Of a DNA stretch of 64,000 nucleotides, positions 858 through 27,426 are shown in pieces. Below the pieces are notes generated by a model. The model was not told the DNA's origin. It ran no database searches and saw only the letters and a list, made by a program, of their open reading frames with translations. The stretch spans positions 15,261-79,260 of the forward strand of contig CAZNDG010000003.1 of NCBI GenBank assembly GCA_964571695.1, read 5' to 3'. Source of the DNA: an uncultured Syntrophus sp. Lineage in GTDB: Bacteria > Desulfobacterota > Syntrophia > Syntrophales > UBA8958. Position 1 is the first letter of the stretch. The number at the start of each line of letters is the position of its first letter. Made by a program: the position numbers and the translations under genes.

Positions 858-3800
858 CTATTTCACGATCCCCGCCGCCACGCCGTTTATCGTGCCTCCG
901 GTTCCGGATGTCACCTGGTAGCCGCCGGCGGCGGCGCCCGAGAATTTGACGTTCAGGGTCGTGCCGGGGACGTCCGTCCGGTTCAGGGCGCCCCCGCCGT
1001 TCACCGCCGCCCCCCAGTTGCCCGCATTGCCGGCGGGCGCGGTCCATCGCTGCATGTTGAACGAGGCGGTCATGTCGTTGCCCCCGGTGTTGGCGCGGAG
1101 GGTGATCGGGGCGGCGTTCAGGACCGGCGTGTCGATGAATGTCCCCGTGACGCTGTTTGTCCCCCAGATGCGGGGAGCCGCCTCGGTCTGGAAGCGGAGG
1201 AACTGGACGCCGTTCATCTGGATCGACATGTTGTTCCCGTTGCCGGCGAAATCGGCCCGGCCGACTTCCGAACAGGGGATGCGGGTGGCCCTTTCCATCG
1301 CCGCCCGGTCCGCGGCGTTCATGCTGTTGATGCGGGCAAAGAATGTGGCGGCATCCATAAACGCCCCCTGTTGGAAAGCCATCCAGGTCCTGGGGTTGGC
1401 GGGATCGAAGAGCCCGCGGATCTCACCGCCCATGACGGAGATCCGGAGGTTTATCCAGTCCGCCGTGGCGCCGGTGATGATCCCGGAGAAGGAATTCGCC
1501 GGGGGATCCACATTGTCGATACGGGCGCTCAGCAGCGCCGTGTCGCTGCCGCCTTCCGTTGCGGCCGAATATTCCCAGGCCACGGCTTTGCCTGCCCAGG
1601 TGGCGGGATCGCCGTCATATTCCCCGCCCGTGGCGGCGCTCCAGATACCCCAGAGGCCGTCATTCTGCCGGGCGGGATTGATTATGGCGGCGCTGCCCGT
1701 AATGGCGCCCAGCCGCAGGTCGATCTCCGGCGCCGCCTCGCCCCAGGTCAGGGGAGAAAGTCCGGGATCGCTGAATTTTACCAGTTGTCTGGAATTAACG
1801 AAAACATTGGCGGCGAAGTTCTGGGGAGTCAGCTCCGGGCTTATCTTTTGTCCATCCGGGGTCATGACAAAGGCGCTGGTGATAGCGCCGCTTCCCTCCC
1901 AGGCACCGGCGCCGGGATAATAATTGCCGGTGAGATCATAGGACTGGGCATTATCGTCCCAACTGTTCAGGATGCCTATGTTCCTGTCCCTGTCCATATA
2001 CAGGCCGAAGAGGGTGGCCTGCACCCGGTTGGCCTGGTTCACGGCGCCGCCGAGATAGGAGACGTAGGCGCCGCCGATGGGTGCCTCGGAATCGGTGAAT
2101 GGATTGTCCGTCTTCAAGGGGTTGGAGCTGTAAAGGATGCCGCCGAAAAGGAACGGTTTGCCTCCGAGGAAACTGGTGTCGTCAACCAGGAGAAATTCCG
2201 TCCGGCTGATCCGTCCGGCGGCCCAGAGGTCGTCCTGCCCGGCGAAGATACCCTGAAGATTGCTGCGGGAGTTGAAGCCGTACATGCCGTAGCCGACCAC
2301 TTCTCCCTTTGGCGAATAGGCCAGTCCGGTCATGGCCTCGATATAGGCTCCCCGATTGTCGAAGGTGATGTCGTTTTGCGTGAAGGAATATACGCTGGGC
2401 TGGGCATCAGTCCAGACGGTCTTGATGGTCTGGCTGTAATAGGTCATGTTCTCCTCGTTTGGACCGCTGGCGTTGAAAGACGTGCTCACCGCCTCCCGCA
2501 GCGAAGGATTGGCGTAGCTGCTCCATCCGTAACGACTGCCGTCCCGCCGGTCCCGATCGTTATAGCCGAAGGAGTAGAACTCTCCGTTGCCGTAGTCACG
2601 GTACCCGGATATCTCGTGATCCAGGACGGCGCTGGTTCCGTCGATACGGCTGGCAAAGGTTAGGCTCCCGGTCGTTTCCTTCCGCCAGACGCCGCCGGAG
2701 ACGGCCTGCCAGGTCCCCTCCGTTCCCCCGGCCGCATCGGGCCGGTACGACCCCACCATCTCTCCGGTGATGGTTCCCGCCTTCGTCAGGGTGAGAAACC
2801 GGCCGGAGATGCCGCCGCTTATAAATCCGTTCTGCCAGAGACCGTTGTTTATGCCGGCGAACCATACACCGCTGTCCGGATAGGTGACGGGAATCTCCGT
2901 GGCGGTCGTATAAGACCCGAAGGAGCCCAGACCGGAAAGATTCATGGCCCAGGCGTCGGCCTGGTCCGGATTGCGGTAACGATTCATCACCTCGTGATTC
3001 AACTGGAAGATGCCGTAATCGGGAAGCCCCTTGATGTTCAGGGTCCATCCGGGGGCATCGTAACCGGTCAGGACGCCGGACGTCGATTCGGAGCCCAGAA
3101 AATAGCCCTCCCGGGAACCCAACTCCACGGAGGCCCCCATATAACCGCCCTGCAGGTTGACCCAGTTGCCGTTGCTCAGGCGGTTGAGAAGTTTGTCGGG
3201 GGTAAAGGGAAGCGCGGCGCCCCGGTAGAATGGCTCTTCCCGGTAAAGGCGTCCCGTGGCCTCCCACATGCCAAGATCCCCGGAAACGGTGCCGGCGAAA
3301 ATACCGCCCCGGAGGAAACCCGCCTCGGTGCCCGTGGGATTGACATAAAGGCCGTAGATGACACCGTTCAGGTTGTTTACCGAACCGGCCCCGCCTTCCG
3401 TGGCGACGGCGCCCATAAGATTCAGATAGTAGGCGTCGCCATCCGGGGTGGTCCTCTTCTGCGACGCGGCGTCGTAACTGAGCAGGCGGGCATTGAAAAC
3501 CGCCGCGCCGGTGTAGTTGCCCATTTGGCCCAAAAAGTACAGATCGGCCTGGTTGTCCATCGTGGTATCTTTCAGGCTGGCTGCACCCGCCATGAGGCCG
3601 GAGAAATCCGCCGCCCGGACCACGCTGTAAACGTCGTTGGACCAGGGCTGGTCGTCCCCGGCGAAGGAGCGGACATAAACATCCGCCGGGGAGGGGTCGA
3701 GGGGAGCGGCCGGATGGTATATGGAGCCCGCCGGCAGATTGCGGGAGACCGGATCGTAGTAAGGGGCGGTGCCGGCGAGATTGGGAACGGGCAAGAGTTT

Positions 3801-6800
3801 CTTCATCCCGCCGCGGCTCAGCATCCAAACCTTGCCGGCGCCGGCCCGATAGGCCAAATAGGAACCGTCGGGCCGGTAGATCCAGGAGTCGCGGTACCGG
3901 CCGCCCAGAGCGTCGTCGTAAGCCTCGATCCGTTCCTGCTGGAACCCCTCGGGAAGGCTGCCGCCGTCCCGGACGAAATAGTCGTATTCATATTGACTTT
4001 TCCAGAAGCTGTCCTGGCCGGGGATGGTGGCGACCGTCTGCATCCGGGTATAGACGCCGTGATGGATCCGTCCTTTTACCGATTGATAGATGCCGCTTGT
4101 GTCCGTCAGGGTGTATTGATCTGTCTCGCCGGAGAAGCTGCTGCTGAAGTACATGGGGGTCCGTGTGTAGGAGCCGATACCCGTGGCCTGCCAGGCCGTA
4201 TCACCGGCGGCGGCATTGGCGACGGCGCCGGAAAGTTCGTAGCGGGCCAGATTGGTCAGGGCAGAGCCGCTGAATATCCCGCTCGTCCCCGGATTGGTCT
4301 GGCCCAGGCCCGCCAACTGCCCTTTCCATAAGCCCTCCTCGGTGAGGTCCGTTGTATTGTGGAACTTGCCTCCCAGGGAAAGGTCCGCGGTTGCCGTGGC
4401 GGTGGCATCGTAGGTTCCACCAAAGGCGGCATTCCAGATCCCCCAGTTGTTCTGGTCGTTTATCCTCATCGCATAGCCGTCCACGACGACGTCCTTGACC
4501 GTTTTGCCGAGGAAGAGCCCGCTGCTCCGGGCAGCCTGAAAATCGTTGACGACGAGGGATGTCAACAGGTTTGCCGGCGACACCGTCGTTGCCTGCTCTT
4601 CCCGGCCGCCGAGCAGGGACAGGTTATCCTGCCACAGGTTGGCGTTTCCGCCGTAGTAGGCGCCGGAGATGACTCCCCCCGTCATGCCTTCCAGATAACC
4701 GGCCTTGTTGCCGGCGGTGACATAAAGGATCAGCGCCTGACTCGCAAGGGTGTTGTCCTGCCATCCTCCGGTCAGATAGCCGCGGAAAGCCCCTCCGTCC
4801 ACGGCTGTTCCGGCAATGTTGCCGCCGCCGGTTCCATAACGGAGCAGGGAGGGCTGATTGCCGGCGTTTTGGACATAACTGCCCATCATCGTAAGGGATG
4901 CCTGGGAGTTCCACTCGGTGGAAGCACTGCCGAGAAGCCCGGCAAGAGTGCCTCCGGTGATGAAAGAGGCGCCGTCGAAGTGTTGCATGGATCCCGACAT
5001 GATGCCCTTCATGGTCAGGGGCGCCAGATCGTAGGTGCCTACCCCGACACTGTCGTACGATGCGGCGACCAGAGGTTGATTGCCCGTGGGGTAACTCCCG
5101 GCGTATCTCAACGTCATGGTCCCCAGGTAGTCGGCGTCGAGATACCGGAATCCCGACGGCACGGCTTCCTGAATCGTCACATGCCCCTGGCCGTCGTCCG
5201 TCCCGGTGAGGTCGCCCATGACGACGAAGACCCGACCGTTGACCGGGGTGAGGTTGTAGGCGCCGTACATTGCCGTCCAGGTGGCGGGCATCCCGCCGCT
5301 GTAATAACCGCCGCCGGCGGGATGATAACCCCACATCCCGAGGATGCCGCCGTCGGTGCGCCGGTAACCCCGGACCTGGCCGGTTACGGTTTCGGTGGCG
5401 AGACCGCCGGCGGGATCGACATCGCGGAAATAGGGAAGGGAGATGTCCGCAAAGGTCTGGAACGACCCGGAGGCGGTATATGGCGTCCAGATGCGGGTTA
5501 CCGTACCGTCGCCGTTGAGGACGCCTTCGTTGAAGGTGCCGGTGAGGCTGCCCGTGAGGTAGCCAAGCTTCCCCTCCTTGTTTGCCAGGCCGTTGTACAG
5601 ACCCCGCCACGATCCCACGATTACCGCCAGATCGGCATTCGAGACCGCGCCGTCGCTCATCGTTCCGCTTAGCGGGGTTACGGTTGTGGCAAGCGATGGA
5701 CCGGTGGCGGCGAGACTAAGGTTTCCCGTACCGGTGGATTCGTTGATCTTTCCCGAGAGAGTGCCGTTTAGATCACCGATGGCGACACTGTTCGTGAAAG
5801 AAGTGCCGCTGCTGATGGACCACTTGTACGATTGCGTGGCCGAGGCATTGCCCACCGAGTCAACGCCCACGTAATCCAGGACATTGATGCCGTCGGGAAG
5901 GCCGCTCAGGGAGATGCTGGGAGAACTGCTGCTGTTCCAGGTCCCGCCGTTGATCCGGTAGGTGTAGGTTGCCGGTTCGTTGGCGGAAAAACCGAAGGTG
6001 GCGGTATTGGTGTCCGCGGTTCCCGGAGGAAATGAAGTCAGCATGACCTGGGGGGGGGTGGTGTCCCTTTGAATGATAGGCTCCACGATGATCGGTTGCG
6101 TCGGGTTGACCGGCGGCGAAACGACCGGGGTGACCGGTGGCGCGACCGGTTCCGTGAACTGCGTCCCGGAGGCCGGTGGGGCGGGAGGCGGCAACTCCGT
6201 GGACGTGGCGGTTCCTGCCGTTTGCTGCGGGGTTGTGGTACCGGTCGTCGTCCCGGTTCCGGTTGTGTCGCCCGTAGCGGTTCCTGTTGACGTTCCTGCT
6301 CCCGTACCGCCGGTGGTTCCGGCGGGTTGTTGCGTCTCGCTGCCTTTGGTTTCCTGCGGTTTTGTTTCCTCCGTCTTGGTCTGTTGCGGAGGCTTTTCAT
6401 CCTTAGGTTTTTCGGTTTTCGCCTCTTCCTTTTTCTCTTCTTTCTTCTCCTCCTGCTTGCCCTGGTCGCCTTCCGGTTTCTGGGCGCCCTCAGGTGATTT
6501 CGCCTCCTCCTTCTTTTCCTGTTTTTCCTCCTTGCCTTTTTCCGTGGGGGTGGTGTCTTTGGCGTGTTTGTCGATCTCCACCGATGTCGCCGGCCGTAGC
6601 GTCGGAGAGCGGTCGGGGGCCGTCACCACCATGGCCTGTCCGGCATTGATGGTGACGACCTGGGTGGGCATCTTGACGTTGTAGCCATAGCCGCTGCCCC
6701 GCTGGAAGGCGAAGCCGCTCTGGCCGTTCTGGAAGTAGGCGAAGAACATGGTGCCGCGGACACCGCAGATGGCGGTGGGGGTATGGATTTCGAAGGTACC

Positions 6801-7157
6801 TTTTTTCTGGAGCTTGTCAACCACCGCCTGGGTTTTGCCCCGGAACAGATTGAAATAACTTTTCCTTCCCTCTTCCGGCTGATACTGGGAAACCCGCAGA
6901 CGGGTGTTTTCCGCCAGGCGGAGGATATTGCCGTCCAGGAATTTTATTTCCGCCTTGGACTTGCTCTTCGATCTCAGGATGTCGCCTACGCTGACCTGGT
7001 CGCCCACGCGGACATCCCGGGTCTGGCCGCCGGCGGTCAAATCGACCCTGCCTTCCAGGGCGGTTATCGTCCCCACCGGCGCCGCCTGAACTGCCGCCAA
7101 TGGCAGCAAGACGAAGGCAAATATTAGCAATAACGCCAAGTTGAGTTTTCTATTCAT
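858..7157 (-). CDS. Giant secreted protein GP1 (2099 aa): signal peptide, FecR domain, K/E-rich and T/G/P-rich linkers, Ig-like domain, G/Y/W-rich super-repeats, conserved C-terminal domain
   Basis: ORF-track frame. N-terminus MNRKLNLALLLIFAFVLLPLAAVQA/APVG is an SPase I-type signal. A FecR-like block follows (GRVDLTAGGQ..VGDQVSVGDILRSKSKSKAEIKFLDGNILRLAENTRL..IHTPTAICGVRGTMF). Then come KEEKQEKKEEAK.. and TGTGTTTGTTT.. low-complexity stretches and a DTTPPQV..TYTYRINGG..SYKWSI Ig-like segment. Repeats carry the motifs WGIW, DGGA[FY].GYL and G.AG[YF]L. Both termini are paralogous to the protein at 15750..25736. Confidence 0.85.
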   Translation of the reverse strand: MNRKLNLALLLIFAFVLLPLAAVQAAPVGTITALEGRVDLTAGGQTRDVRVGDQVSVGDILRSKSKSKAEIKFLDGNILRLAENTRLRVSQYQPEEGRKSYFNLFRGKTQAVVDKLQKKGTFEIHTPTAICGVRGTMFFAYFQNGQSGFAFQRGSGYGYNVKMPTQVVTINAGQAMVVTAPDRSPTLRPATSVEIDKHAKDTTPTEKGKEEKQEKKEEAKSPEGAQKPEGDQGKQEEKKEEKKEEAKTEKPKDEKPPQQTKTEETKPQETKGSETQQPAGTTGGTGAGTSTGTATGDTTGTGTTTGTTTPQQTAGTATSTELPPPAPPASGTQFTEPVAPPVTPVVSPPVNPTQPIIVEPIIQRDTTPPQVMLTSFPPGTADTNTATFGFSANEPATYTYRINGGTWNSSSSPSISLSGLPDGINVLDYVGVDSVGNASATQSYKWSISSGTSFTNSVAIGDLNGTLSGKINESTGTGNLSLAATGPSLATTVTPLSGTMSDGAVSNADLAVIVGSWRGLYNGLANKEGKLGYLTGSLTGTFNEGVLNGDGTVTRIWTPYTASGSFQTFADISLPYFRDVDPAGGLATETVTGQVRGYRRTDGGILGMWGYHPAGGGYYSGGMPATWTAMYGAYNLTPVNGRVFVVMGDLTGTDDGQGHVTIQEAVPSGFRYLDADYLGTMTLRYAGSYPTGNQPLVAASYDSVGVGTYDLAPLTMKGIMSGSMQHFDGASFITGGTLAGLLGSASTEWNSQASLTMMGSYVQNAGNQPSLLRYGTGGGNIAGTAVDGGAFRGYLTGGWQDNTLASQALILYVTAGNKAGYLEGMTGGVISGAYYGGNANLWQDNLSLLGGREEQATTVSPANLLTSLVVNDFQAARSSGLFLGKTVKDVVVDGYAMRINDQNNWGIWNAAFGGTYDATATATADLSLGGKFHNTTDLTEEGLWKGQLAGLGQTNPGTSGIFSGSALTNLARYELSGAVANAAAGDTAWQATGIGSYTRTPMYFSSSFSGETDQYTLTDTSGIYQSVKGRIHHGVYTRMQTVATIPGQDSFWKSQYEYDYFVRDGGSLPEGFQQERIEAYDDALGGRYRDSWIYRPDGSYLAYRAGAGKVWMLSRGGMKKLLPVPNLAGTAPYYDPVSRNLPAGSIYHPAAPLDPSPADVYVRSFAGDDQPWSNDVYSVVRAADFSGLMAGAASLKDTTMDNQADLYFLGQMGNYTGAAVFNARLLSYDAASQKRTTPDGDAYYLNLMGAVATEGGAGSVNNLNGVIYGLYVNPTGTEAGFLRGGIFAGTVSGDLGMWEATGRLYREEPFYRGAALPFTPDKLLNRLSNGNWVNLQGGYMGASVELGSREGYFLGSESTSGVLTGYDAPGWTLNIKGLPDYGIFQLNHEVMNRYRNPDQADAWAMNLSGLGSFGSYTTATEIPVTYPDSGVWFAGINNGLWQNGFISGGISGRFLTLTKAGTITGEMVGSYRPDAAGGTEGTWQAVSGGVWRKETTGSLTFASRIDGTSAVLDHEISGYRDYGNGEFYSFGYNDRDRRDGSRYGWSSYANPSLREAVSTSFNASGPNEENMTYYSQTIKTVWTDAQPSVYSFTQNDITFDNRGAYIEAMTGLAYSPKGEVVGYGMYGFNSRSNLQGIFAGQDDLWAAGRISRTEFLLVDDTSFLGGKPFLFGGILYSSNPLKTDNPFTDSEAPIGGAYVSYLGGAVNQANRVQATLFGLYMDRDRNIGILNSWDDNAQSYDLTGNYYPGAGAWEGSGAITSAFVMTPDGQKISPELTPQNFAANVFVNSRQLVKFSDPGLSPLTWGEAAPEIDLRLGAITGSAAIINPARQNDGLWGIWSAATGGEYDGDPATWAGKAVAWEYSAATEGGSDTALLSARIDNVDPPANSFSGIITGATADWINLRISVMGGEIRGLFDPANPRTWMAFQQGAFMDAATFFARINSMNAADRAAMERATRIPCSEVGRADFAGNGNNMSIQMNGVQFLRFQTEAAPRIWGTNSVTGTFIDTPVLNAAPITLRANTGGNDMTASFNMQRWTAPAGNAGNWGAAVNGGGALNRTDVPGTTLNVKFSGAAAGGYQVTSGTGGTINGVAAGIVK

Positions 7158-7226
7158 GGTGATACCCCCTGCAATACCGGTTAAACAGTCTATCGGACTC
7201 CGTATGTCGTTTTTTCCCTTACCTTG

Positions 7227-7254
7227 ATTATAATGATTATTTCTTTTTGTTCAA
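7227..7254 (-). promoter_or_regulatory. Sigma70-type promoter for GP1 (-35 TTGAAC, 16-nt spacer, -10 TATAAT on the minus strand)
   Basis: The reverse complement reads ttgaac-aaaaagaaataatcat-tataat, about 70 nt upstream of the GP1 ATG (7157). It lies in the 154-bp gap between the OMP1 stop and the GP1 start. Confidence 0.5.
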
Positions 7255-7263
7255 TAGCTTGCG

Positions 7264-7279
7264 TGTGACCGAGATCACA
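7264..7279. promoter_or_regulatory. Perfect CRP/FNR-family-type palindrome TGTGA-N6-TCACA (site 1 upstream of GP1)
   Basis: The sequence is tgtgaccgagatcaca, immediately upstream of the predicted GP1 promoter. Confidence 0.5.
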
Positions 7280-7286
7280 GTCCGGG

Positions 7287-7302
7287 TGTGATTTTGGTCA
7301 CA
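7287..7302. promoter_or_regulatory. Perfect CRP/FNR-family-type palindrome TGTGA-N6-TCACA (site 2 upstream of GP1)
   Basis: The sequence is tgtgattttggtcaca. Its centre is 23 bp from the centre of site 1. Confidence 0.5.
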
Positions 7303-7311
7303 CTTTCCGGG

Positions 7312-8928
7312 TCAGAACCGCAATTCACAGCCGACGGAATACAGACTTCGATCGTAGTCATAGGCGTAGATGTTGGAATTGGCCCGGGTTCCCGCATACT
7401 GTAACAGGAGACTCAGATAACGTTTCAGGTCCCAGGTCAGGCCGATGGTGCCGGTGTAGATCTGATCGTTCCGTTTGGTGTTGTTGTAGTTGGTGTTTTC
7501 ATAGCGGTAATTCTGGAAATATGCGTCGCCGCTGATTTGGAGTTTCAGTCTGTTCCAGAGGGGATAGATGAGGTTGGCGGTGAGGCGATAGCCCTGATTG
7601 TCATAAAATATGCCGTCGGTATTGTTGATGGTGTAGCCGAACTTGAGATTCAGTATCCCGGCCGGGGCGAAGAGCCACATCCAGCTTACGTAGCTGTCCA
7701 GGCCGGTTCCGCTCATGTCGTTCAATTCCGGGTTGGCGACGGTCTTGAAATTGTTGTTTTTTGCATAGGCTCCCGACAACTCGACGATCTGGTTGGCGGT
7801 GGGCAGGAAACGCAGCAGCGGCCCGACGGTGAAATTTTCCGAATAACGGCGGTAGCCGCCGCCGTTGTTTTCGTAATCCCCCCGCTTGGCGACGAAGGTG
7901 TAGTTGGCGTTCAGATTGAGGGCGAAGGCGCCGAAATTGTAACCCGGCGCGGCGGAAAAGGAATTGGCGTAAATGTCGTAGGTGGTGGAGTTTTTCTCGT
8001 GGACGTTGCTCAGGGCCGTGAAGCCGGCATTGAACAGCCAGTTGCCGGGAAGGATGGGGATGAAGTCCGCCCGGGCGGTGGACATCAGGCCGAAACTCTT
8101 CTGATTGCTCTCGTTGACATAATTGTTGGAACTCTGGACCTGCGGCGAGGTGTCCGGGTAATATAGAAAAGGTTCCTGAAGCATATTGGTGTCGTACTGG
8201 CCCAGGGCGGTCAGGGTGAGTCGCACCGGCCGTTGGAGGAAACTCTGTTCTTCCACGATGTCCTGGTAGCGCCGGGCAAAGGCGCCGAGATCGGACAGAG
8301 GGTCCTGGGTGACGGCGGCCTGAAATCGTTCCCGGGCCTTGGAGAATTTCCGGTCCCCCATGAGGGCGATGCCGATTTGAAAATCCGCCGCCTGGGCATA
8401 GTTTTTGTCCAGGGACTTGGCCTTATCGAAGGAGGTGATCGCCTCGGAAAATTTTCCCTTGCGGGACAGGATCATTCCTTTCAGAAAGGCGACCTTCGCC
8501 GGGTAGATATCGTTCTTTTCCGCCACGGCGACCCAGTTTTCCGCCTCCTCGATTCTCTCCACCTGGATGAGCGCGTCGATGAGTTCCACCACCGCTTCCT
8601 TGACCGCGGGCTTCAGCGTGGCGGCGTCCGTGAACTGCGGGATTGCCTGTTGCGGTTCGTTGGTCTGCTTGTAGCAGAGCCCCAGGAAAAATGCGGCGGT
8701 GGACGAGGAGGGGTTACGGCGGCGAACCTCGGTGAGGATCTCCACGGCCTCCTCGTAGTTCTCGTTTTGGTACTGGCGCACGCCTTCTTCGATCATGGCC
8801 TTCACTTTATCCGTTTCCGCCGGCATCCCCCGGGCCTGTTCGGTATCGAATATGATGATCACGCTCATCAGGAAAAAGAAGAACACAAGGAAAACATTCA
8901 TAAATTTGATTTTTTCCCCCATATACAC
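7312..8928 (-). CDS. OMP1: N-terminal TPR-repeat domain + C-terminal outer-membrane beta-barrel protein (538 aa), candidate Slam/DUF560-like
   Basis: There is an N-terminal hydrophobic segment (FLVFFFFLMSVIIIF). TPR-like helical repeats follow (NYEEAVEILTEV.., GKFSEAITSFDKAKSLDKNYAQA..). About 300 aa of alternating Y/N/G-rich strands then begin at GQYDTNMLQEP and end in YSVGCELRF, a terminal aromatic residue as in a BAM beta-signal. The protein aligns along its full length with 14162..15718. Confidence 0.75.
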   Translation of the reverse strand: MYMGEKIKFMNVFLVFFFFLMSVIIIFDTEQARGMPAETDKVKAMIEEGVRQYQNENYEEAVEILTEVRRRNPSSSTAAFFLGLCYKQTNEPQQAIPQFTDAATLKPAVKEAVVELIDALIQVERIEEAENWVAVAEKNDIYPAKVAFLKGMILSRKGKFSEAITSFDKAKSLDKNYAQAADFQIGIALMGDRKFSKARERFQAAVTQDPLSDLGAFARRYQDIVEEQSFLQRPVRLTLTALGQYDTNMLQEPFLYYPDTSPQVQSSNNYVNESNQKSFGLMSTARADFIPILPGNWLFNAGFTALSNVHEKNSTTYDIYANSFSAAPGYNFGAFALNLNANYTFVAKRGDYENNGGGYRRYSENFTVGPLLRFLPTANQIVELSGAYAKNNNFKTVANPELNDMSGTGLDSYVSWMWLFAPAGILNLKFGYTINNTDGIFYDNQGYRLTANLIYPLWNRLKLQISGDAYFQNYRYENTNYNNTKRNDQIYTGTIGLTWDLKRYLSLLLQYAGTRANSNIYAYDYDRSLYSVGCELRF

Positions 8929-9114: not shown

Positions 9115-9143
9115 TTTACATTATGACTTTCCACCCTTATAAT
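9115..9143 (+). promoter_or_regulatory. Sigma70-type promoter for the ole-like operon (-35 TTTACA, 17-nt spacer, -10 TATAAT)
   Basis: tttaca lies at 9115-9120 and tataat at 9138-9143, about 30 nt upstream of the GTG start at 9174. Confidence 0.45.
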
Positions 9144-9173
9144 TATCAAGATCAGTCAGGTGATTATTGACCG

Positions 9174-10283
9174 GTGGAAGCGAAGCGAGAGGTCCATAAA
9201 ACGAAAACATCGTCCATCCAAACGGATTCAACGTTTCATTATCAAAGCAGATTTGAAAGCATCGGCGTCAAGATACCCGCGACCCGCCTGACCACCGGGG
9301 AAATAATGGCGGGGGTGAAGATGTGGGGCAGGATCGATCTCGAAGATCTGACCGGCATCGCGGCACGCCGGGTATGTACCGGCAAGGAGGATTCTTATGT
9401 CCTGTCGATCAGCGCCGCCCGGGACTGCCTGCGATATTCCCGTTATCAGCCGGATGAACTGGAGATGATCATCTGCTGTTCCATCACCCGCTATCAGGAC
9501 GGCCTAAATTTCGTTTACGAACCGCCCCTCTCCCTGACCGTGAAAGAGGCCATCGGGGCGCATCGGGCGTTGAATTTCGACATCACCAATGCCTGCGCCG
9601 GGATGCTCACGGGAGTTTACATCATGAATGATTTCATCCGCCGGGGGGTGATCAGGCGCGGAATGGTGATCTCCGGAGAATATCTGTCCTCGGCGGTGCA
9701 TAATGCCGTACCCCATGTCAAGACGGTGTTGAGCGGGCAGCTTGCCTCCCTCACCGTGGGGGACTGCGGGGCGGCGGTCATCCTGGAAAGGGCGCCGGAG
9801 GGTGAATCCGGCTTGCAGGTGTCCAATTTCATAACCCTGGCGAAGTACAGCGATCTCTGTATCGGCGAGCCCTGCGTCGATGCCCCGGGAGCCCAGATGG
9901 TGACCGCGGCCCGGAAGATACACCAGGTGGCGATTTCCGATTCTCCGCCTATCCTGAAGCGGGCGTTGATGGCCGCGGGTCTCGAATACGGCGATATCGA
10001 TCATTTCATTCCCCACCAGACATCCATCCGGGCCATCCGTTCCGGCGGCAAGCACCTGGCACGTTACCTCGGCAGCAATGTGAAGAATATCATTACCAAT
10101 TTCCAGGAGTACGGCAATACGGCCTCCACCACTCATTTTCTGGCCATGTACCGGTACCTCCAGGAAAAGCGGTTTAAAAAAGGAGACAAGATCCTGATCA
10201 TGGCCTTTGCCTCGGGGCTGGTTATCGGGGTGGTGATTTTTACCATGGACGCATTGGTGGATCGGTATGGGAGCGCTGATTGA
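9174..10283 (+). CDS. oleA: OleA-like thiolase (FabH/KAS III superfamily) with an intact Cys-His-Asn triad
   Basis: NFDITNACAGMLTG carries the active-site Cys, HFIPHQTS the His and EYGNTASTT the Asn. YEPPLS holds a Glu equivalent to the one in the OleA LEPST block. From memory, the protein aligns block by block with Xanthomonas OleA. An OleB/C/D-like context follows. Confidence 0.65.
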   Translation: MEAKREVHKTKTSSIQTDSTFHYQSRFESIGVKIPATRLTTGEIMAGVKMWGRIDLEDLTGIAARRVCTGKEDSYVLSISAARDCLRYSRYQPDELEMIICCSITRYQDGLNFVYEPPLSLTVKEAIGAHRALNFDITNACAGMLTGVYIMNDFIRRGVIRRGMVISGEYLSSAVHNAVPHVKTVLSGQLASLTVGDCGAAVILERAPEGESGLQVSNFITLAKYSDLCIGEPCVDAPGAQMVTAARKIHQVAISDSPPILKRALMAAGLEYGDIDHFIPHQTSIRAIRSGGKHLARYLGSNVKNIITNFQEYGNTASTTHFLAMYRYLQEKRFKKGDKILIMAFASGLVIGVVIFTMDALVDRYGSAD

Positions 10284-11154
10284 ATCAGTAGCGGTGAGCC
10301 GCCCAGGGTTTTTCCGTCGCGGGTCCGTGGATCTCGCCGTTAAGGCGGCGGCGGATTGTCTCGGCAAGGTCCGCCGCGATCCCAACGAACTGGGCCTCCT
10401 TGTCAATACGGGGATTTACCGGGATCGGGACATCGGCGAACCGTCGATCGCATCCTTCATCCAACAGCGGATCAGGGCCAACGAGCTGTTTACCGGCGCC
10501 GAAGGCACCTTCTCCTTCGATCTGAACAATGGCGCCGGCGGAATGCTAACCGCCGCCATGGTAGTGGACGGATTTCTCGCCACCGGCGCCGTGAAATATG
10601 GCCTGGTGGTCACCAGCGACGCCGAACCGCATCCCGGTCAGTGCGAATCCTATCCTTTTGTACCGGCCGGAGCCGCGCTCCTCCTTTCCCGGGGGCGGGC
10701 CGGCGAGGGTTTTTTACATTTCCGGACCGATACGGACACGGAGTTTGCCGCCGATTTTGCCAGTCGCATCGAGTGGACGGCAAAGGGAAGGAAAAAAAGA
10801 AACATCCTCATGGTGAGACAAAAGGAAGAGTATGCCCGGCACTGTGCCCGTTGCGCCCGGGAGGGACTGGCGGATTTCCTGCAGGAAATATCCATGCCCA
10901 TGGAAGAAATCGATATCGTCGTTCCCTCCCCCGGCCCGCCGGGGTGGCTGGCGGAACTGGTCAGGGAGCCCGGTCTGGGAGAGCGGACTGTGGTGCTGCC
11001 GGAGGCATTTGCCCGGATGCATACGGCGGGGCTCGGTTTCGCCTTGATGCAGGCCCGGGAAGACGGCCGGTTCGCCAGGGCGAAAAACTGTCTCTTCCTT
11101 GCGGTAGGTTCCGGGATCACCGTGAGCTTCGCCCTCTATCGCAACCCTTCCTGA
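10267..11154 (+). CDS. Second thiolase-fold (OleA/FabH-like) protein lacking the catalytic Cys/His/Asn; probable non-catalytic partner subunit
   Basis: Its ATG overlaps the 3' end of the upstream gene by 17 nt, suggesting translational coupling. FSFDLNNGAGGMLTAA has Gly where the nucleophilic Cys should be. The His block reads VVPSPGPPG and the Asn block reads RMHTAGLG. The RDRDIGEPSIAS block, which matches the OleA Glu loop, is retained. Confidence 0.6.
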   Translation: MGALIESVAVSRPGFFRRGSVDLAVKAAADCLGKVRRDPNELGLLVNTGIYRDRDIGEPSIASFIQQRIRANELFTGAEGTFSFDLNNGAGGMLTAAMVVDGFLATGAVKYGLVVTSDAEPHPGQCESYPFVPAGAALLLSRGRAGEGFLHFRTDTDTEFAADFASRIEWTAKGRKKRNILMVRQKEEYARHCARCAREGLADFLQEISMPMEEIDIVVPSPGPPGWLAELVREPGLGERTVVLPEAFARMHTAGLGFALMQAREDGRFARAKNCLFLAVGSGITVSFALYRNPS

Positions 11155-11201
11155 CGGCGGATGAATATATTTCAACCCCTCGTTTTTCCGGGAGATCCCC
11201 G

Positions 11202-12146
11202 ATGAGATTCACCCCCGCCGCAAACGCCGCCGACATTGCTCCTCCCTTCGACATCTCCCTGCACCGGCGTCTGTATCCCTTTGCCGGCCATTGGGTTCAG
11301 GGTCCGGGGTTTCTGTATCACTATCTCGACGAAGGCCGGGGCGAGGCGGTTGTGGCGGTGCACGGGAACCCGACTTGGTCCTTCTATTACCGGGAGGTGG
11401 TAAGAGCGCTGAGTTCCGGGAACCGGGTGATCGTTCCGGATCACGTGGGCTGCGGCCTGTCATCCCGGCCGCCCGAAAGCGTTTTCTCCTATACCCTGGC
11501 GAGTCATGTGGATAACCTGGAGGCGCTGCTGGATTATCTCGATCTCCAGGCCGGCGTGACCCTCCTGGTCCACGACTGGGGGGGGATGATCGGCCTGGCC
11601 TGCGCCTGCCGGCGCCCGGAGCGGATCGCCCGGATCATCCTTCTCAATACCGGCGCCTTTCTCATTCCCGCCGGCAAGAAACTGCCGTGGCAGTTGTCCT
11701 TCATCCATCGCCTGCCGATCCTACCCGACCTGCTGGTCCGGGGATTTAACGCCTTTTCCTATCTGGCGACCTTCCTTGCCGTCACGAAGCGGATGCCCCC
11801 GGGGGTCCGGCGCGCCTACACGGCGCCCTACAATTCCTGGCAAAACCGCCTGGCCACATTGCGCTTTGTCCAGGATATTCCCGTGTCTCCCCGAAACGGG
11901 AGCTACGCCCTGGCCCGGTGGACCGACGAGCGCCTGTGCCTTTTGCGTCATCTGCCCATGCTCATCTGCTGGGGAGGGCGGGACTTCGTATTCGACGATT
12001 CGATCCTGGCGGAATGGCGCCGGCGGTTTCCCCAGGCGGAGGTCCACTCCTTTCCCCGGGGGGGGCACTACATCCTGGAGGACGAGGGGGATCAGGTCAT
12101 CGAACTGATCCGGACCTTCCTGGACAGCACACCCCGGGGCCGGTGA
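11202..12146 (+). CDS. oleB: OleB-like alpha/beta-hydrolase (haloalkane-dehalogenase-like fold)
   Basis: I chose the in-frame ATG at 11202 rather than the ORF-track start at 10356. The protein reads MRFTPAA..YPFAGHWVQGPGFLYHYLDEGRGEAVVAVHGNPTWSFYYR..VPDHVGCGLSS..LVHDWGG. These are typical oxyanion and nucleophile-elbow blocks of this family. Confidence 0.65.
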   Translation: MRFTPAANAADIAPPFDISLHRRLYPFAGHWVQGPGFLYHYLDEGRGEAVVAVHGNPTWSFYYREVVRALSSGNRVIVPDHVGCGLSSRPPESVFSYTLASHVDNLEALLDYLDLQAGVTLLVHDWGGMIGLACACRRPERIARIILLNTGAFLIPAGKKLPWQLSFIHRLPILPDLLVRGFNAFSYLATFLAVTKRMPPGVRRAYTAPYNSWQNRLATLRFVQDIPVSPRNGSYALARWTDERLCLLRHLPMLICWGGRDFVFDDSILAEWRRRFPQAEVHSFPRGGHYILEDEGDQVIELIRTFLDSTPRGR

Positions 12147-12315
12147 TAACCGAGGAATACTAATTGTTATAATCGTTATAATTTCTTGAATATGTTTAGA
12201 AAATATGTTTGCAGACTGGATCGCCCGCGGGTGGCTATCTTGACGCCGCCTGGCGGCCTGTGTTAATGAACTCCTCGAATACCGCCCCGTGGCCCTTCAC
12301 AATCCGGTGGAAGAA

Positions 12316-13986
12316 ATGAACAAACCCCTCGATACCCCCAACCCGGACGCGACGGCGAATCTAAGTGAACATCTGAGTCGCGTCGCCCGCCTCCTGCCCG
12401 AGAAGAAGGCCGTGGTCTGCCCGGCCGCCTCCGGCGCCTTTGTCCACTGGACGTTCCGCCAACTGGACGAAGAGACGGACCGTCTGGCCCATGGTTTCCA
12501 GCGGGCCGGCATCGTCCGGGGGGTGAAAACCATCCTCATGGTCCGGCCTTCCCTGGAGCTGTTCGCCGTTACCTTCGCCCTCTTTCGGGTGGGGGCGATT
12601 CCGGTGATGATCGATCCGGGCATGGGGCGGCAGAAGCTGGTGGACAACCTGTCTTCCATCGGCGCCGAGGCATTCATCGGCATTCCCCTGGCCCACATCC
12701 TCCGGGTCCTGTCACCGGGAAAATTCTCCACGGTAAAGGTGAAAATCACCGTGGGCCGCCGTCTCTTCTGGGGGGGGTATGCGCTGGAGGATTTACGCAA
12801 GGGTCCCTGGCGGCCCTTCCCGCCGGCTCCCATGCGTCCCGACGAGCGGGCGGCGATCTTCTTCACCACGGGGAGCACCGGCCCTCCCAAAGGGGTGGTC
12901 TATGAGCACGGGATGTTCGACGCCCAGGTCCGCTACCTCCGGACCCATTTCGGGTATGGCCGGGATGAGGTGGATCTGGCTACATTTCCGCTCTTTTCCC
13001 TGTTCGACGCCGTTTTGGGAATGACCTCCGTCATTCCTGACATGGACCCCACCCGTCCGGCACAGGCGGACCCCCGGAAGATCGTCCACGCCCTGGAGGC
13101 CAACAACTGCAACAGCATGTATGGATCGCCCGCCCTCCTGGAAAACCTCGCCCGTTACGGGGCCGAGACGGGCAAGAAGCTTCCCGCCGTCAAACGGATC
13201 ATCACCGCCGGCGCGCCGGTTCGTCCCGACCTGATGGAGGCCGTCCACCGCCTGCTGCCACCGGAGGCCCGGATTCACACCCCCTATGGGGCTACCGAGG
13301 CCCTGCCGGTGAGCGATATCGACAGCCGGGAGGTTCTTACGGAGACCCGTCAAATCTCCGAAAGTGGAGGCGGCGCCTGTGTGGGACGGCCCATGGCGGG
13401 AATGGAGGTCCGGATCATCGGGATTACCGAGGAGCCTCTGGAGCGCATCGAGGATGCGGAGATCCTTCCGCCGGGAACGATCGGGGAAATCGCCGTCAAA
13501 GGACCGGTGACGACCAGGGAATATTTCCGGAATCCCGGGGCGACGCGCCTGGCAAAAATGCGGGACGGGGACGGCGGCGTCTGGCACCGGATGGGCGATC
13601 TGGGTTATCTGGACGATCGGCGGCGGCTGTGGTTCTGCGGCCGGAAGGCCCACCGGGTGGAAACCGCCGCCGGCGCTCTCTTTACCATTCCTTGCGAGGC
13701 CCTCTTCAATCGCCATCCCCGGGTGCGACGTTCAGCCCTGGTGGGGGTAGGCGCCCCGGGAAGCAAGCGGCCGGTAATCATCATCGAACTCCAGGCCGGG
13801 GACAGCGGCCGGGATAAGGAAGGACTGACGGAGGAATTGCTGACGATCGCCCGGAGCAACGGCATGATCGGGGCGATAAATACTATCCTCTACCATCCCG
13901 GATTTCCGGTGGACATCCGTCACAACGCCAAGATCTTCCGGGAAAAGCTGGCCGTCTGGGCGACGGCGCAGGTTGGTACGGATTGA
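12316..13986 (+). CDS. oleC: OleC-like AMP-dependent synthetase/ligase (beta-lactone synthetase family)
   Basis: FFTTGSTGPPKGVVYEH is the AMP-binding P-loop. FALFRVGAIPVMIDPGMG..AFIGIPLAH blocks are present. The ORF track begins at the GTG at 12289. The ATG at 12316 has ggtggaag upstream, so the start is uncertain by 27 nt. Confidence 0.65.
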   Translation: MNKPLDTPNPDATANLSEHLSRVARLLPEKKAVVCPAASGAFVHWTFRQLDEETDRLAHGFQRAGIVRGVKTILMVRPSLELFAVTFALFRVGAIPVMIDPGMGRQKLVDNLSSIGAEAFIGIPLAHILRVLSPGKFSTVKVKITVGRRLFWGGYALEDLRKGPWRPFPPAPMRPDERAAIFFTTGSTGPPKGVVYEHGMFDAQVRYLRTHFGYGRDEVDLATFPLFSLFDAVLGMTSVIPDMDPTRPAQADPRKIVHALEANNCNSMYGSPALLENLARYGAETGKKLPAVKRIITAGAPVRPDLMEAVHRLLPPEARIHTPYGATEALPVSDIDSREVLTETRQISESGGGACVGRPMAGMEVRIIGITEEPLERIEDAEILPPGTIGEIAVKGPVTTREYFRNPGATRLAKMRDGDGGVWHRMGDLGYLDDRRRLWFCGRKAHRVETAAGALFTIPCEALFNRHPRVRRSALVGVGAPGSKRPVIIIELQAGDSGRDKEGLTEELLTIARSNGMIGAINTILYHPGFPVDIRHNAKIFREKLAVWATAQVGTD

Positions 13987-14017
13987 TGATCAGGATGTGA
14001 AAAAATACCTTCCGGCA

Positions 14018-14033
14018 TGTGAACCAGTTCACA
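14018..14033. promoter_or_regulatory. Perfect CRP/FNR-family-type palindrome TGTGA-N6-TCACA upstream of OMP2/GP2
   Basis: The sequence is tgtgaaccagttcaca, in the 175-bp gap between oleC and OMP2, about 20 nt upstream of a -35-like box. Confidence 0.5.
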
Positions 14034-14052
14034 CCAAAATACACAATACATA

Positions 14053-14082
14053 TTGACACCAATGAGTAAACGCCTGTAAATT
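14053..14082 (+). promoter_or_regulatory. Candidate sigma70-type promoter for OMP2-GP2 (-35 TTGACA, 18-nt spacer, -10 TAAATT)
   Basis: The sequence reads ttgaca-ccaatgagtaaacgcctg-taaatt in an AT-rich gap. Confidence 0.4.
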
Positions 14083-14161
14083 TAAAACGAATAGATGCTT
14101 TATTGTCTATCGTCGGATGTGTACGGCTACCTGATCAAAATTGTTAATGGGAGATCGGCAA

Positions 14162-15718
14162 ATGAGGAAAATCCCGGCGCCTGTGCCGTCAATGGCGGTT
14201 TTGTTTATGCTCTGTCTGCTTATTCTGACGCCCTGTGCCTTTGGTCAGGAGGCCCCGGATCTACAGGCGGGTATCCGGCATTATCAGGCGGAGAACTATG
14301 AGGAAGCCATCGACATCCTGACTAAATACCGTCAGAAAGACCCGTCTTCGTCCATGGCGGCGTTCTTCCTCGGGATGTCCTATAAGCAGGCCAACGACAT
14401 CCCCTCCGCCGAAGGCCAGCTTCGTGATGCCGCCACTCTCACCCCTCCGGTCCGGCAGGCCCCGGTGGAGTTGATCGATGTCCTCTACCAGCAGGGTAAA
14501 TTCGAAGAGGCAAAGCAGTGGATCGGCGTCGCGGAAACCAACAACCTCTTCCCGGCCAAGATCGCCTTCCTCAAGGGGATGATCGCCGCCTCGGAGGGAC
14601 GTTACCAGCAGGCCATCGAGGCCTTCGATCAGGCCAAGAATCTGGATGCCGCCTATACCCAGTCCGCGGATCTTCAGATCGGGGTCTGCTACATGAACCT
14701 GCGCAAATACGACATGGCCAAGCAGCGTTTTCAGACCGCCATTACCCAGGACCCCCTCTCAGATCTCGGGTCTTTCGCCCGGCGTTATCAGGATCTCGTG
14801 GAAGAGCGCAGTTTCCTGGAACGGCCCCTGCGCCTGACCGTGGGCCTTATGGCCCAGTACGACACGAATATCCTCTCCGAACCGACCTGGAATGGCTTCT
14901 GGCTTCAGCGGACGGGGACGGATTTTTGGGAACGGGACGAGAAGAGCTTCAAGTATCTGACCACGGCCCGCCTGGATTATGTCCCCATCCTCAAAGGTCC
15001 CTTCACGTTCAACGCGAGCTATGCCGCCGCCGCCAGTTTTCAGGAGAAATATTCCACCAGTTACGACCTCATCGCCAACACCTTTTCCGCTAACCCCGGT
15101 TTGAGTTTCGGACGCTTCATGGTGGTACTGGCGGGTAACTACACCCATGTGATGAAGAGAAATCCCGGCTACCAGCGTTATTCGGAAAATTACACCGTCG
15201 GGCCGCTCCTCCGGTATATGCCGGCGCCGAACCATATCCTGGAGCTCTCGGCCGGTTATGCGGGTAAAAACTATTTTGAAGCCGTCACCCAGCCGCAACT
15301 CTGGGATCAGTCGTCCCGGGGCCTGGACAGCTATATCGCCTGGTACTGGATGTTCGGGGCCCGAGGGGGGCTTTTGAATCTCAAGTACGGTTTCAGCACG
15401 GAGAGCGCCCACGGCGCCTACTTCGACAATCGGGGACACCGGTTTACGGTCAATTTCATGTCCCCGAAATACTGGCTGATCCGGGCCCAGGTCGGCGGGG
15501 AGATGTTCCTGCAGGACTACCAGAACCCCAACGCCACCTTCGACAACACCAAACGGAGCGATCAGACATACACGCTGACAGCCGGGATTTACTGGGATAT
15601 AAACCGGCATCTCACGATCATCGCCCCGCAGTACATGAAGACCCGGGTCTTCTCGAATATATTCCTTTACGACTATGACCGCAATGTCTATTCCGTAGGC
15701 TTGGAACTCAGGTTTTAA
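14162..15718 (+). CDS. OMP2: TPR-repeat + outer-membrane beta-barrel protein, paralog of OMP1
   Basis: The ATG at 14162 is preceded by gggaga; the ORF track starts at 14141. The signal peptide is MRKIPAPVPSMAVLFMLCLLILTPCAFG/QE. TPR-like repeats follow, then a barrel that starts at AQYDTNILSEP and ends in YSVGLELRF. Long blocks are shared with OMP1 (AAFFLG..YKQ, DAATL.P, FPAKIAFLKGMI, TQDPLSDLG.FARRYQD.VEE.SFL.RP.RLT). Confidence 0.75.
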   Translation: MRKIPAPVPSMAVLFMLCLLILTPCAFGQEAPDLQAGIRHYQAENYEEAIDILTKYRQKDPSSSMAAFFLGMSYKQANDIPSAEGQLRDAATLTPPVRQAPVELIDVLYQQGKFEEAKQWIGVAETNNLFPAKIAFLKGMIAASEGRYQQAIEAFDQAKNLDAAYTQSADLQIGVCYMNLRKYDMAKQRFQTAITQDPLSDLGSFARRYQDLVEERSFLERPLRLTVGLMAQYDTNILSEPTWNGFWLQRTGTDFWERDEKSFKYLTTARLDYVPILKGPFTFNASYAAAASFQEKYSTSYDLIANTFSANPGLSFGRFMVVLAGNYTHVMKRNPGYQRYSENYTVGPLLRYMPAPNHILELSAGYAGKNYFEAVTQPQLWDQSSRGLDSYIAWYWMFGARGGLLNLKYGFSTESAHGAYFDNRGHRFTVNFMSPKYWLIRAQVGGEMFLQDYQNPNATFDNTKRSDQTYTLTAGIYWDINRHLTIIAPQYMKTRVFSNIFLYDYDRNVYSVGLELRF

Positions 15719-15749
15719 TCCCTCGTTTTATGTGTCAGGAGGTGTCACC

Positions 15750-25736
<9,987 letters not shown>

Positions 25737-25776
25737 GCCATGGGCTGAAGTTCAACGGCTGGTAAACCGCCTTTTC

Positions 25777-25807
25777 TTCCTCCCCCGCATAGGGGGAGGA
25801 CTTTTTG
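25777..25807 (+). terminator. Rho-independent terminator after GP2
   Basis: The hairpin is ttcctccccc-gcata-gggggagga, followed by ctttttg. It lies 40 nt after the GP2 stop. Confidence 0.6.
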
Positions 25808-25855
25808 TGCAGTGTGTGTAGTGATGGAAAAATTAATCGGGGAGGAAAAACGTTT

Positions 25856-26380
25856 ATGAGAATAACAATTAACCTTATCGCCGTCGTCACGGCATTGCTG
25901 CTGTCGCTGCCGGCTTGTACGCCGGCCTGGGCCGCCGGTCCGGTCAAGATCGGCATCATCGACCTGCCGCGGATCATGCGGGACGCCAAGGCGGCGAAAG
26001 ACGCCCGGGGCGTCCTGGCAAAGGATCTGGAAAACCGGCGGGCCCAGCTCATGGCCAAAGATAAGGAAATCAAGGCCCTGGACGACGAATTGAAGAATCC
26101 CCGGCTCAAACTCAGCGATGGGGCCCGAAAGGAGAAAGCGGAGAAACTGGCCCGGGAGGTAAAGGATTTCCGACGTCTCGATGCGGACTTCGGCGAAGAG
26201 CTGAAAAAGAAGGAATACGAGCTGACCCAGAAGATCATTGTCGATATTCGTGGGATCGTCCAATCCATGATAAAGAATGAGAAATACACCCTGATCCTCG
26301 AAAAGGGCGGTGTCTTCGGAAGCGATGAATCCGTCGATGTGACGGAGCGAATCCTGAGACTATACGACCGGCAGCGGTGA
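25856..26380 (+). CDS. skp: OmpH/Skp-family periplasmic chaperone
   Basis: ggggagg lies upstream of the ATG at 25856. The signal peptide is MRITINLIAVVTALLLSLPACTPAWA. VKIGIIDLPRIMRDAKAAKDA.. and long K/E-rich coiled-coil arms follow, ending ..YTLILEKGGVF, as is typical of OmpH proteins. Confidence 0.85.
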   Translation: MRITINLIAVVTALLLSLPACTPAWAAGPVKIGIIDLPRIMRDAKAAKDARGVLAKDLENRRAQLMAKDKEIKALDDELKNPRLKLSDGARKEKAEKLAREVKDFRRLDADFGEELKKKEYELTQKIIVDIRGIVQSMIKNEKYTLILEKGGVFGSDESVDVTERILRLYDRQR

Positions 26381-26403
26381 TTACTTTTGGTCCCTCCCCA
26401 TCA

Positions 26404-27426
26404 ATGAGCACGCCCGTTCTCGTGACCGGCGGCGGCGGATTTTTGGGCGGCGCCATCGTCGCCCACCTCCTGGCGGCGGGTTACACCGTCCGGAGTTTTG
26501 CCCGGAGTGACTATCCGGAGTTGCGGCGCCTGGGAGTGGAAGTGATCCGGGGCGACCTGGCGGATCCCGAGGCGGTCCGGCAGGCCTGCGCGGGCTGTGC
26601 CGTTGTCTTCCACAACGCCGCCCGGGCGGGGGTATGGGGGGATTTCGACTCCTTTTACCGCCCCAATGTGGTCGGTACGAAGAACATCCTGGCGGCCTGC
26701 GGTTGCACCGGCGTGGGCCGGCTGGTCTTTACCAGCTCCGCCAGCGTCGTCTTCGGCGATGCCGATCTGGCGGGGGTAGATGAATCGGTTCCCTATCCGG
26801 ACCGGCCCCGCTCCCCCTACACCGCCACCAAGGCGGAGGCGGAAAGGATGGTCCTAAAAGCAGACCGTCCCGCCCTGAGGACCCTGTCGCTCCGACCCCA
26901 CCTCATCTGGGGGCCGGGAGACACCCAGATCATCCCCCGCATCCTTGCCCAGGCCCGGGCCGGCAAGATCCTCCGTGTCGGCGACGGGAAGAACATCATC
27001 GACACCACCTATATCGACAACGCCGCCGCCGCCCATCTCCTTGCCGCCCAGGCCCTGGCGGAGAACCCCCGGGTCGCGGGGCGGGCCTATTTCATCTCCA
27101 ACGGCGAGCCCGTGAATCTCTGGGATTTTGTGAACCGCATTCTGGCCCTGTCGGGCATCCCGCCGATCCGCCGGGGAATCCCCAAATCCATCGCCGTCCT
27201 TATGGGGGGGGTCATCGAGCGTCTCCATCTCGCCCTGAAACTGCCCGGGGAACCCCGGATGACCCGCTTCCTCGCGGAGGAACTGGCTACGACCCATTGG
27301 TTCGACATTGGCGCCGCCCGGCGGGAATTGCTCTACGAGCCCCGCGTCTCCATGGCGGAGGGCCTGCTGCGCCTGCAAGCATGGTTGGCGGAACTGTCCG
27401 GAAAAGACATCGCGGCGAATCAATGA
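26404..27426 (+). CDS. oleD: OleD-like NAD(P)-dependent reductase (3-beta-hydroxysteroid dehydrogenase / extended SDR family)
   Basis: MSTPVLVTGGGGFLGGAIVAHLLAAGYTV is a Rossmann GxxGxxG block. SPYTATKAEAE is the YxxxK catalytic motif. The ORF track starts at the GTG at 26377, which overlaps the skp stop. Confidence 0.6.
   Translation: MSTPVLVTGGGGFLGGAIVAHLLAAGYTVRSFARSDYPELRRLGVEVIRGDLADPEAVRQACAGCAVVFHNAARAGVWGDFDSFYRPNVVGTKNILAACGCTGVGRLVFTSSASVVFGDADLAGVDESVPYPDRPRSPYTATKAEAERMVLKADRPALRTLSLRPHLIWGPGDTQIIPRILAQARAGKILRVGDGKNIIDTTYIDNAAAAHLLAAQALAENPRVAGRAYFISNGEPVNLWDFVNRILALSGIPPIRRGIPKSIAVLMGGVIERLHLALKLPGEPRMTRFLAEELATTHWFDIGAARRELLYEPRVSMAEGLLRLQAWLAELSGKDIAANQ

Follow-up and report, generated by a model that had tools for sequence, protein, structure and literature searches.

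Here, we analysed a stretch of 64,000 nucleotides from an uncultured Syntrophus sp. of the order Syntrophales (GenBank assembly GCA_964571695.1, contig CAZNDG010000003.1, positions 15,261 to 79,260 of the forward strand), hereafter referred to as the window, which carries genes resembling the oleABCD genes for synthesis of long-chain olefins via β-lactones. Our data indicate that these genes very probably represent a conserved Syntrophales operon, thioA-thioA2-oleB-oleC-oleD, which in one sub-lineage received an autonomous 12.4-kb envelope module between oleC and oleD. The module consists of OMP2, encoding an outer-membrane protein, GP2, encoding a giant secreted protein, and skp2 (skp in short), encoding a periplasmic chaperone of the Skp/OmpH family. 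A list of open reading frames (ORFs) together with a Pfam scan places all eight genes on the plus strand (Table 1), that is, the block lies in the same orientation as the ole genes on either side, and the distance from the oleC stop codon (13986) to the oleD start codon (26404) amounts to 12,417 bp. Co-directionality and spacing had both been reported correctly in a first-pass annotation of this DNA, which left it open whether an export module had inserted into an ole operon or whether the two systems are functionally coupled. The comparison with related genomes favours the former reading, as the intact cluster is the rule and the block is absent from all other congeners. The split is an ordinary lineage-specific insertion and does not indicate that the two systems work together.

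The interrupted ole cluster

To place the locus in context, we searched the whole genomes of 40 relatives (G numbers below; G000 is the genome of the window, a metagenome-assembled genome (MAG) of 3.4 Mb in 116 contigs), followed up contig ends and mapped the gap by tblastn. In eight of the 12 genomes of the genus, oleC is directly followed by oleD (G001, G002, G004, G006, G007, G008, G009 and G010), and the two genes are split only in G000, G003 and G005; the arrangement in G011 was left out of this tally. The contiguous order thioA-thioA2-oleB-oleC-oleD is also found in G012, G015 and G016, which represent other genera of the same family, and oleC and oleD are likewise adjacent in G031, which belongs to another family of the order. 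A search with an alignment of thioA2 recovered 45 loci, and wherever oleC and oleD occur together at one of these, in Bacteroidales, Spirochaetota and other phyla as well as in Syntrophales, they are neighbours, except in two close relatives of the window. Thus, the synteny comparison proposed by the first-pass annotation identifies the intact five-gene cluster as the rule in genus and family.

The gap measures 12.4, 11.4 and 11.5 kb in G000, G003 and G005, respectively, and in all three genomes it is filled by the same three genes, OMP2-GP2-skp, with the same junctions. The remaining nine genomes of the genus lack any OMP homologue. At the left junction, the oleC stop codon is followed by a spacer of variable length, a perfect TGTGA-N6-TCACA palindrome, a TTGACA promoter and OMP2. 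At the right junction, the GP2 stop codon precedes a GC-rich hairpin with a T-run and skp, and oleD starts 20–50 nt further on (23 nt in G000). A comparison of the two junctions yielded no common k-mer of ≥8 nt, and the junction spacers are single-copy in the genome. It could be argued that a chimeric contig merely simulates an interruption, since the genome is a MAG of many contigs and an exact 735-bp repeat in GP2 might confuse assemblers. However, the probability of such an assembly or binning artefact is negligible: the oleC/operator/promoter/OMP2 and GP2/hairpin/skp/oleD junctions recur at 80–90% identity in two other assemblies, MAGs from different projects (JASGUC010000024 and DAOTJR010000016) that carry the same interruption at the same site.

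The module also occurs independently of the ole genes. Pairs of OMP and giant-protein genes are located at unrelated loci in G012 and G014–G017, all from other genera, and the module loci of G012 and G015 include Skp genes as well. The neighbours at these loci encode a thiamine diphosphate (TPP) enzyme, IleRS, MltA, a B12/radical-SAM enzyme and zinc-ribbon/DUF3426 proteins, none of which is lipid-metabolic. G014 and G017 possess the pair but neither OleC nor OleD; G012, G015 and G016 have both systems, but on different contigs. Within the window, a second module, OMP1-GP1, is arranged divergently upstream of thioA; it is also present in G005 and absent from G003. OMP1 and OMP2 are 49–51% identical, a divergence similar to that separating them from homologues of other genera, and a recent duplication of the module across the ole genes was rejected for this reason.

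These observations bear on the second explanation of the first-pass annotation, a functional coupling. Under this rival reading, synthesis of olefins or envelope lipids would be co-selected with export of the giant surface protein, and a module embedded in the ole operon would tie production of membrane hydrocarbons to secretion of a very large cargo through shared regulation. Such coupling could account for the common direction of the eight genes and the 23 nt that separate the end of skp from oleD, for the ole genes being flanked by both modules in G000 and G005, and for the persistence of the split in three species in which oleD is under purifying selection. However, the occurrence of the pairs at unrelated loci beside neighbours without a role in lipid metabolism contradicts a recurrent functional linkage. 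In addition, the ole cluster is uninterrupted in eight congeners as well as in three members of other genera in the family, no congener other than the three split genomes has the module, two genomes have the module without ole genes and three have both on different contigs, and the module comes with its own operator, promoter and terminator. Hence, we consider functional coupling very unlikely and the insertion of an autonomous module the better account of the locus.

Regulation and history of the split locus

The inserted module carries its own predicted operator, promoter and terminator, which are conserved in all three split genomes (Table 1). Only three palindromes of the CRP/FNR type exist in the window, and all of them are found at the two giant-protein modules. 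Hairpins equivalent to the terminator of the window follow GP2 in G003 and G005 (-21 to -22 kcal/mol), and the 45–55 nt preceding skp are not conserved among the three genomes. Since promoter-like sites in the region are no more numerous than in shuffled sequence, the promoter upstream of thioA stays a candidate.

It is reasonable to assume that the insert brought along the CRP/FNR-type operator and the promoter as well as the strong terminator behind the giant gene. As terminator and skp would both have arrived with the insert, oleD is now located 23 nt behind skp and behind the terminator. Presumably, oleD is transcribed together with skp, either by (reduced) read-through or from an atypical promoter that escaped recognition. 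There is a slim chance that the pathway was rewired in this way, with oleD placed in a CRP/FNR-controlled unit, downstream of both the 10-kb gene for the giant protein and a strong terminator. If so, the final olefin would be formed only when the module is transcribed and keto-acid or ketone products would accumulate otherwise, which would establish a regulatory link between the hydrocarbon content of the envelope and display of the giant surface protein. The oleD gene itself has retained its motifs and evolves under purifying selection (dN/dS 0.19–0.26 among the split genomes), suggesting that the ole pathway is intact and probably still used.

Several observations weigh against insertion of an autonomous module into a conserved operon. 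The insert contains only the three module genes, and neither a transposase or integrase gene nor a target-site duplication or terminal repeat is present; a mobile genetic element as the vehicle was rejected, as the junctions lack these genes, terminal inverted repeats and target-site duplications. Both OMP-giant protein modules of G000, and of G005, flank the ole genes, a coincidence for which there is no explanation if modules and ole genes have nothing to do with each other. A consensus scan of the 45–55 nt between terminator and skp detected no promoter for skp-oleD. OleC and OleD remain under the strict equivalog cut-offs of NCBI (900 and 580 bits). Finally, trees of the genes on the two sides of the insert give conflicting topologies. 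In the tree of thioA, thioA2 and oleB, G000, G003 and G005 form one clade (100/100) and G007 falls among the unsplit genomes, whereas G007, although unsplit, groups with G000 in the oleD tree (98/94). The genes downstream agree with the oleD tree: G007 is 92–94% identical to G000 there, as compared to 57–71% across thioA, thioA2 and oleB. A history consisting of a single gain and vertical descent was rejected on these grounds, and the trees call for at least one gain plus recombinational loss or replacement.

The simplest reading of these data is one ancestral insertion, after which the thioA-oleC tract in the lineage of G007 may have been replaced by a distant unsplit allele, which would have removed the insert. 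Between G000 and G003, nucleotide identity is roughly the same to the left and to the right of the insert (~86–87%). In G001, G002 and G008 (loci L029, L028 and L030, respectively), oleC is 81–82% identical to that of the window but oleD only 66–67%, and their oleD genes group with that of G016 from another genus. This mismatch indicates that the boundary between oleC and oleD has recombined more than once. Synteny is also broken upstream of thioA, where the flanks of G007, G004 and G010 map to contig C10 of G000.

A two-gene thiolase with an OleB-type hydrolase

The first-pass annotation had assigned the genes to the OleABCD pathway, which holds for OleC, OleD and OleB but not for OleA. In an NCBIfam scan, OleC matched two olefin β-lactone synthetase models over their full length with 619.9 bits (NF045786, equivalog cut-off 900) and 570.7 bits, and it reached 711.5 bits on PRK09274, above the cut-off of 478; the next unrelated family followed at 168 bits. 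OleD scored 410.7 bits (NF042422, cut-off 580) and 380.1 bits on two models for 2-alkyl-3-oxoalkanoate reductases, with HpnA as the next family at 142 bits, and contains the Rossmann motif TGGGGFLG as well as YTATK (YxxxK). Judged by these matches, OleC and OleD fall within the Ole clades, though far from the proteobacterial seed sequences. Both genes are single-copy in the genome.

The oleB-like hydrolase matches Pfam Abhydrolase_1 (3e-32), haloalkane dehalogenase models (1e-39 to 1e-40) and haloalkane dehalogenases in the PDB (1e-31), and carries an HDWGG motif with the Asp nucleophile. Its domain corresponds to the last 250 residues of a long ORF, and the likely ATG start is preceded by a GGGAGA ribosome-binding site (Table 1). 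The gene adjoins oleC in all Syntrophales clusters examined. Its product is 44% identical to OleB of G031, the genome from another family of the order, which harbours a canonical oleABCD cluster. Genuine OleB proteins, too, fall into the haloalkane-dehalogenase family.

The departure from OleA concerns the thiolase. On the OleA-type model NF006720, ThioA obtained 131.6 bits, far below the cut-off of 285, which OleA of G031 passes with 393.7 bits. Nor does ThioA conform to the published OleA pattern EPxx[AS]x(14,18)DxxNACL (PMC7158056): the final residue deviates, with NACA rather than NACL. Catalytic columns were read from an alignment of the canonical OleA of G031 with seven orthologue pairs. 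ThioA possesses the full catalytic set, i.e. Glu116, Cys141 (NACAGM), His281 (PHQTS) and Asn315 (YGNTAS). ThioA2 lacks ~45 N-terminal residues, and its triad positions are occupied by Ala90, Ser221 and His252, so that Cys, His and Asn are all absent; its Glu58, however, is invariant in eight orthologues. Glu116 of ThioA and Glu58 of ThioA2 both align with the Glu of the G031 OleA. In OleA of Xanthomonas campestris, the base is Glu117, located ~26 residues before the catalytic Cys, and an equivalent Glu is thus present in both proteins of the window.

The same pattern has been described for two actinobacterial systems. LstB (E60) and NltB (E57) are truncated, lack the Cys-His-Asn triad and have an essential Glu, and activity of LstAB and NltAB requires co-expression of the two subunits as a heterodimer (PMC12141560; bioRxiv 10.1101/856955). 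The window likewise contains adjacent thiolase genes, the second of which encodes a truncated, triad-less subunit with a Glu near residue 57–60. ThioA and ThioA2 therefore look like a heterodimer of the LstAB/NltAB type, as judged from these shared features rather than from a tree.

Mechanistically, ThioA would supply the Cys-His-Asn triad and the triad-less ThioA2 the glutamate base, and the pair would condense two fatty acyl-CoAs head to head to a 2-alkyl-3-keto acid. OleD would reduce this acid, OleC would use ATP to close the reduced product to a β-lactone, and OleB would decarboxylate the latter to a long-chain cis-olefin. A cis-olefin is predicted because the thiolase pair is followed by an OleB-type gene, unlike in the LstAB/NltAB pathways, which lack OleB. 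Alternatively, the hydrolase could be a generic enzyme of the dehalogenase fold, in which case the product would be a β-lactone or another dialkyl lipid, comparable to lipstatin and nocardiolactone. Indeed, pairs of the LstAB/NltAB type have so far been tied only to β-lactone pathways, no OleB-specific curated model matched, the best being those for haloalkane dehalogenases, and related clusters fit this reading: in Spirochaetota MAGs the order is thioA-thioA2-oleC-oleD without an OleB homologue, and in Bacteroidales MAGs the same four genes are preceded by an α/β hydrolase gene whose product is only ~30% identical to OleB. However, a haloalkane-dehalogenase match is what a true OleB would give as well, all Syntrophales clusters examined have retained the hydrolase gene in the position between thioA2 and oleC, and the identity to OleB of the canonical cluster in the same order is 44%. 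Hence, we regard a pathway without olefin formation as unlikely and prefer decarboxylation to a cis-olefin. The loci with the order thioA-thioA2-oleC-oleD (L051–L076; Bacteroidales, Spirochaetota and other MAG contigs) have these genes at about position 9000–13600 of each locus.

The combination of an LstAB/NltAB-type thiolase pair with OleB departs from the literature and is more notable than the split. The pair has so far been linked to actinobacterial β-lactone natural products, whereas here it occurs with OleB in strictly anaerobic syntrophs. It is more probable than a rewired pathway that the two-gene thiolase together with OleB defines a class of ole clusters which has been overlooked in anaerobes. 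If confirmed, this would widen the known range of bacterial producers of hydrocarbons and β-lactones and provide a condensing heterodimer possibly able to couple two different acyl chains. A survey based on the OleA pattern named Bacteroidetes as a phylum without ole clusters, and neither the phylum of the Bacteroidales nor Spirochaetota is among its positives (PMC7158056). The split is of minor importance in itself but warns that surveys relying on gene neighbourhood can miss or mis-score such loci; of the published ones, one was confined to 5 kb around oleA and another covered six genes on either side.

Features of the window and known systems compared

Table 1. Coordinates of genes and predicted regulatory signals in the window
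Feature	Position	Strand	Remarks
OMP1 and GP1 (second module)	858..8928 (GP1 858-7157, OMP1 7312-8928)	-	Divergent, upstream of thioA
Candidate promoter of the ole operon	9115..9143	+	σ70-like, TTTACA-17-TATAAT, 11/12 matches; consensus scan only
thioA	9174..10283	+	KAS-III/OleA-like thiolase, catalytic, 369 aa; Pfam ACP_syn_III and ACP_syn_III_C (FabH-type N- and C-domains)
thioA2	10267..11154	+	Thiolase-fold partner, truncated, 295 aa; weak FabH-type match; 17-nt overlap with thioA
oleB-like gene	11202..12146	+	α/β hydrolase of the haloalkane-dehalogenase type; predicted β-lactone decarboxylase; within long ORF 10356-12146
oleC-like gene	12316..13986	+	β-lactone synthetase (AMP-binding enzyme); ORF opens with GTG 12289, likely start ATG 12316
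Putative CRP/FNR-type operator	14018..14033	.	Perfect palindrome TGTGAACCAGTTCACA; left edge of insert; conserved in G003 and G005
Predicted promoter of the inserted module	14053..14082	+	σ70-like, TTGACA-18-TAAATT; TTGACA hexamer conserved in G003 and G005
OMP2	14162..15718	+	Outer-membrane protein; N-terminal TPR repeats, C-terminal β-barrel (BBP2_2); ORF opens at 14141
GP2	15732..25736	+	Giant secreted protein, 3334 aa; FecR domain at N-terminus
Predicted intrinsic terminator after GP2	25775..25808	+	9-bp GC-rich stem, then T-run; -21.6 kcal/mol, z -4.0
skp2	25857..26380	+	Skp/OmpH periplasmic chaperone, module-specific; Pfam OmpH 2.9e-25; ORF 25805-26380, likely start ATG 25857
oleD-like gene	26404..27426	+	NAD(P)H-dependent 2-alkyl-3-oxoalkanoate reductase; 3-beta-HSD/extended SDR; ORF 26377-27426, likely start ATG 26404

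Some further features were recorded at the locus. A gene of the Peptidase_C10 (streptopain) family lies directly downstream of GP1 on the minus strand (window 2-856). The repeat in GP2 comprises window positions 21698-22432 and 22976-23710, at an offset of 1278 bp, and is identical in 735 of 735 bases; it represents either a very recent repeat expansion or a collapse or duplication in the assembly. oleB and oleC are separated by an AT-rich spacer of 169 bp (window 12147-12315) with TTATAAT-like motifs, which can be aligned with G003 only; the corresponding gaps are much shorter in other congeners, and the spacer may be an internal promoter or the remnant of another insertion. The gap 3' of oleD (window 27520-27690) contains short sequences that are repeated on many contigs of the genome at 85–93% identity and look like a dispersed family of the REP/MITE type. 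Further downstream, two divergent fluoride riboswitches are located ~150 bp apart (window 48317-48379 on the minus and 48532-48594 on the plus strand), each scoring above the Rfam gathering threshold. The skp2 product has a signal peptide alongside the clear OmpH domain. It represents a second copy, 36% identical to the other Skp of the genome (contig C40), and its gene is located 3' of a giant-protein gene rather than in the bamA-skp-lpxD context.

Compared with the oleABCD systems of Xanthomonas campestris, Shewanella and Micrococcus, the window shows the same succession of OleB-, OleC- and OleD-type genes, and ThioA keeps the Glu base and the Cys-His-Asn triad of the thiolase. However, where those systems have a single homodimeric OleA, the condensing enzyme of the window is specified by a catalytic thiolase gene that overlaps a triad-less one. 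The premise of the first-pass annotation that ole genes are normally contiguous or fused was too strict, as published contexts include fused oleBC genes, oleACD clusters that lack oleB and oleABCD clusters with 0–3 genes in between (PMC7064751; OleB is described there as a β-lactone decarboxylase and no further). Three intervening genes are thus within the known range, whereas 12.4 kb of envelope genes with their own predicted promoter and terminator are unusual. The cluster of G031 (L027:6355-15198) is contiguous and encodes OleB, OleC and OleD proteins that are 43–44% identical to those of the window, but it has a single OleA that passes the OleA-type model instead of a ThioA/ThioA2 pair. 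It is bordered on both sides by genes for CrtI-family (carotenoid isomerase/desaturase-like) oxidoreductases, with a gene for a FabF-like ketosynthase beyond one of them, which suggests a modified, possibly polyunsaturated, hydrocarbon product.

The gene clusters for lipstatin (lstABCD) and nocardiolactone (nltABCD) likewise start with two adjacent thiolase genes, followed by OleC- and OleD-type genes, and the likeness of LstA/LstB and NltA/NltB to ThioA/ThioA2 was assessed from their described features, not from their sequences. These clusters come from Actinobacteria, lack OleB and yield a β-lactone as the end product, whereas the cluster described here belongs to anaerobic Syntrophales and has an OleB-type gene between thioA2 and oleC.

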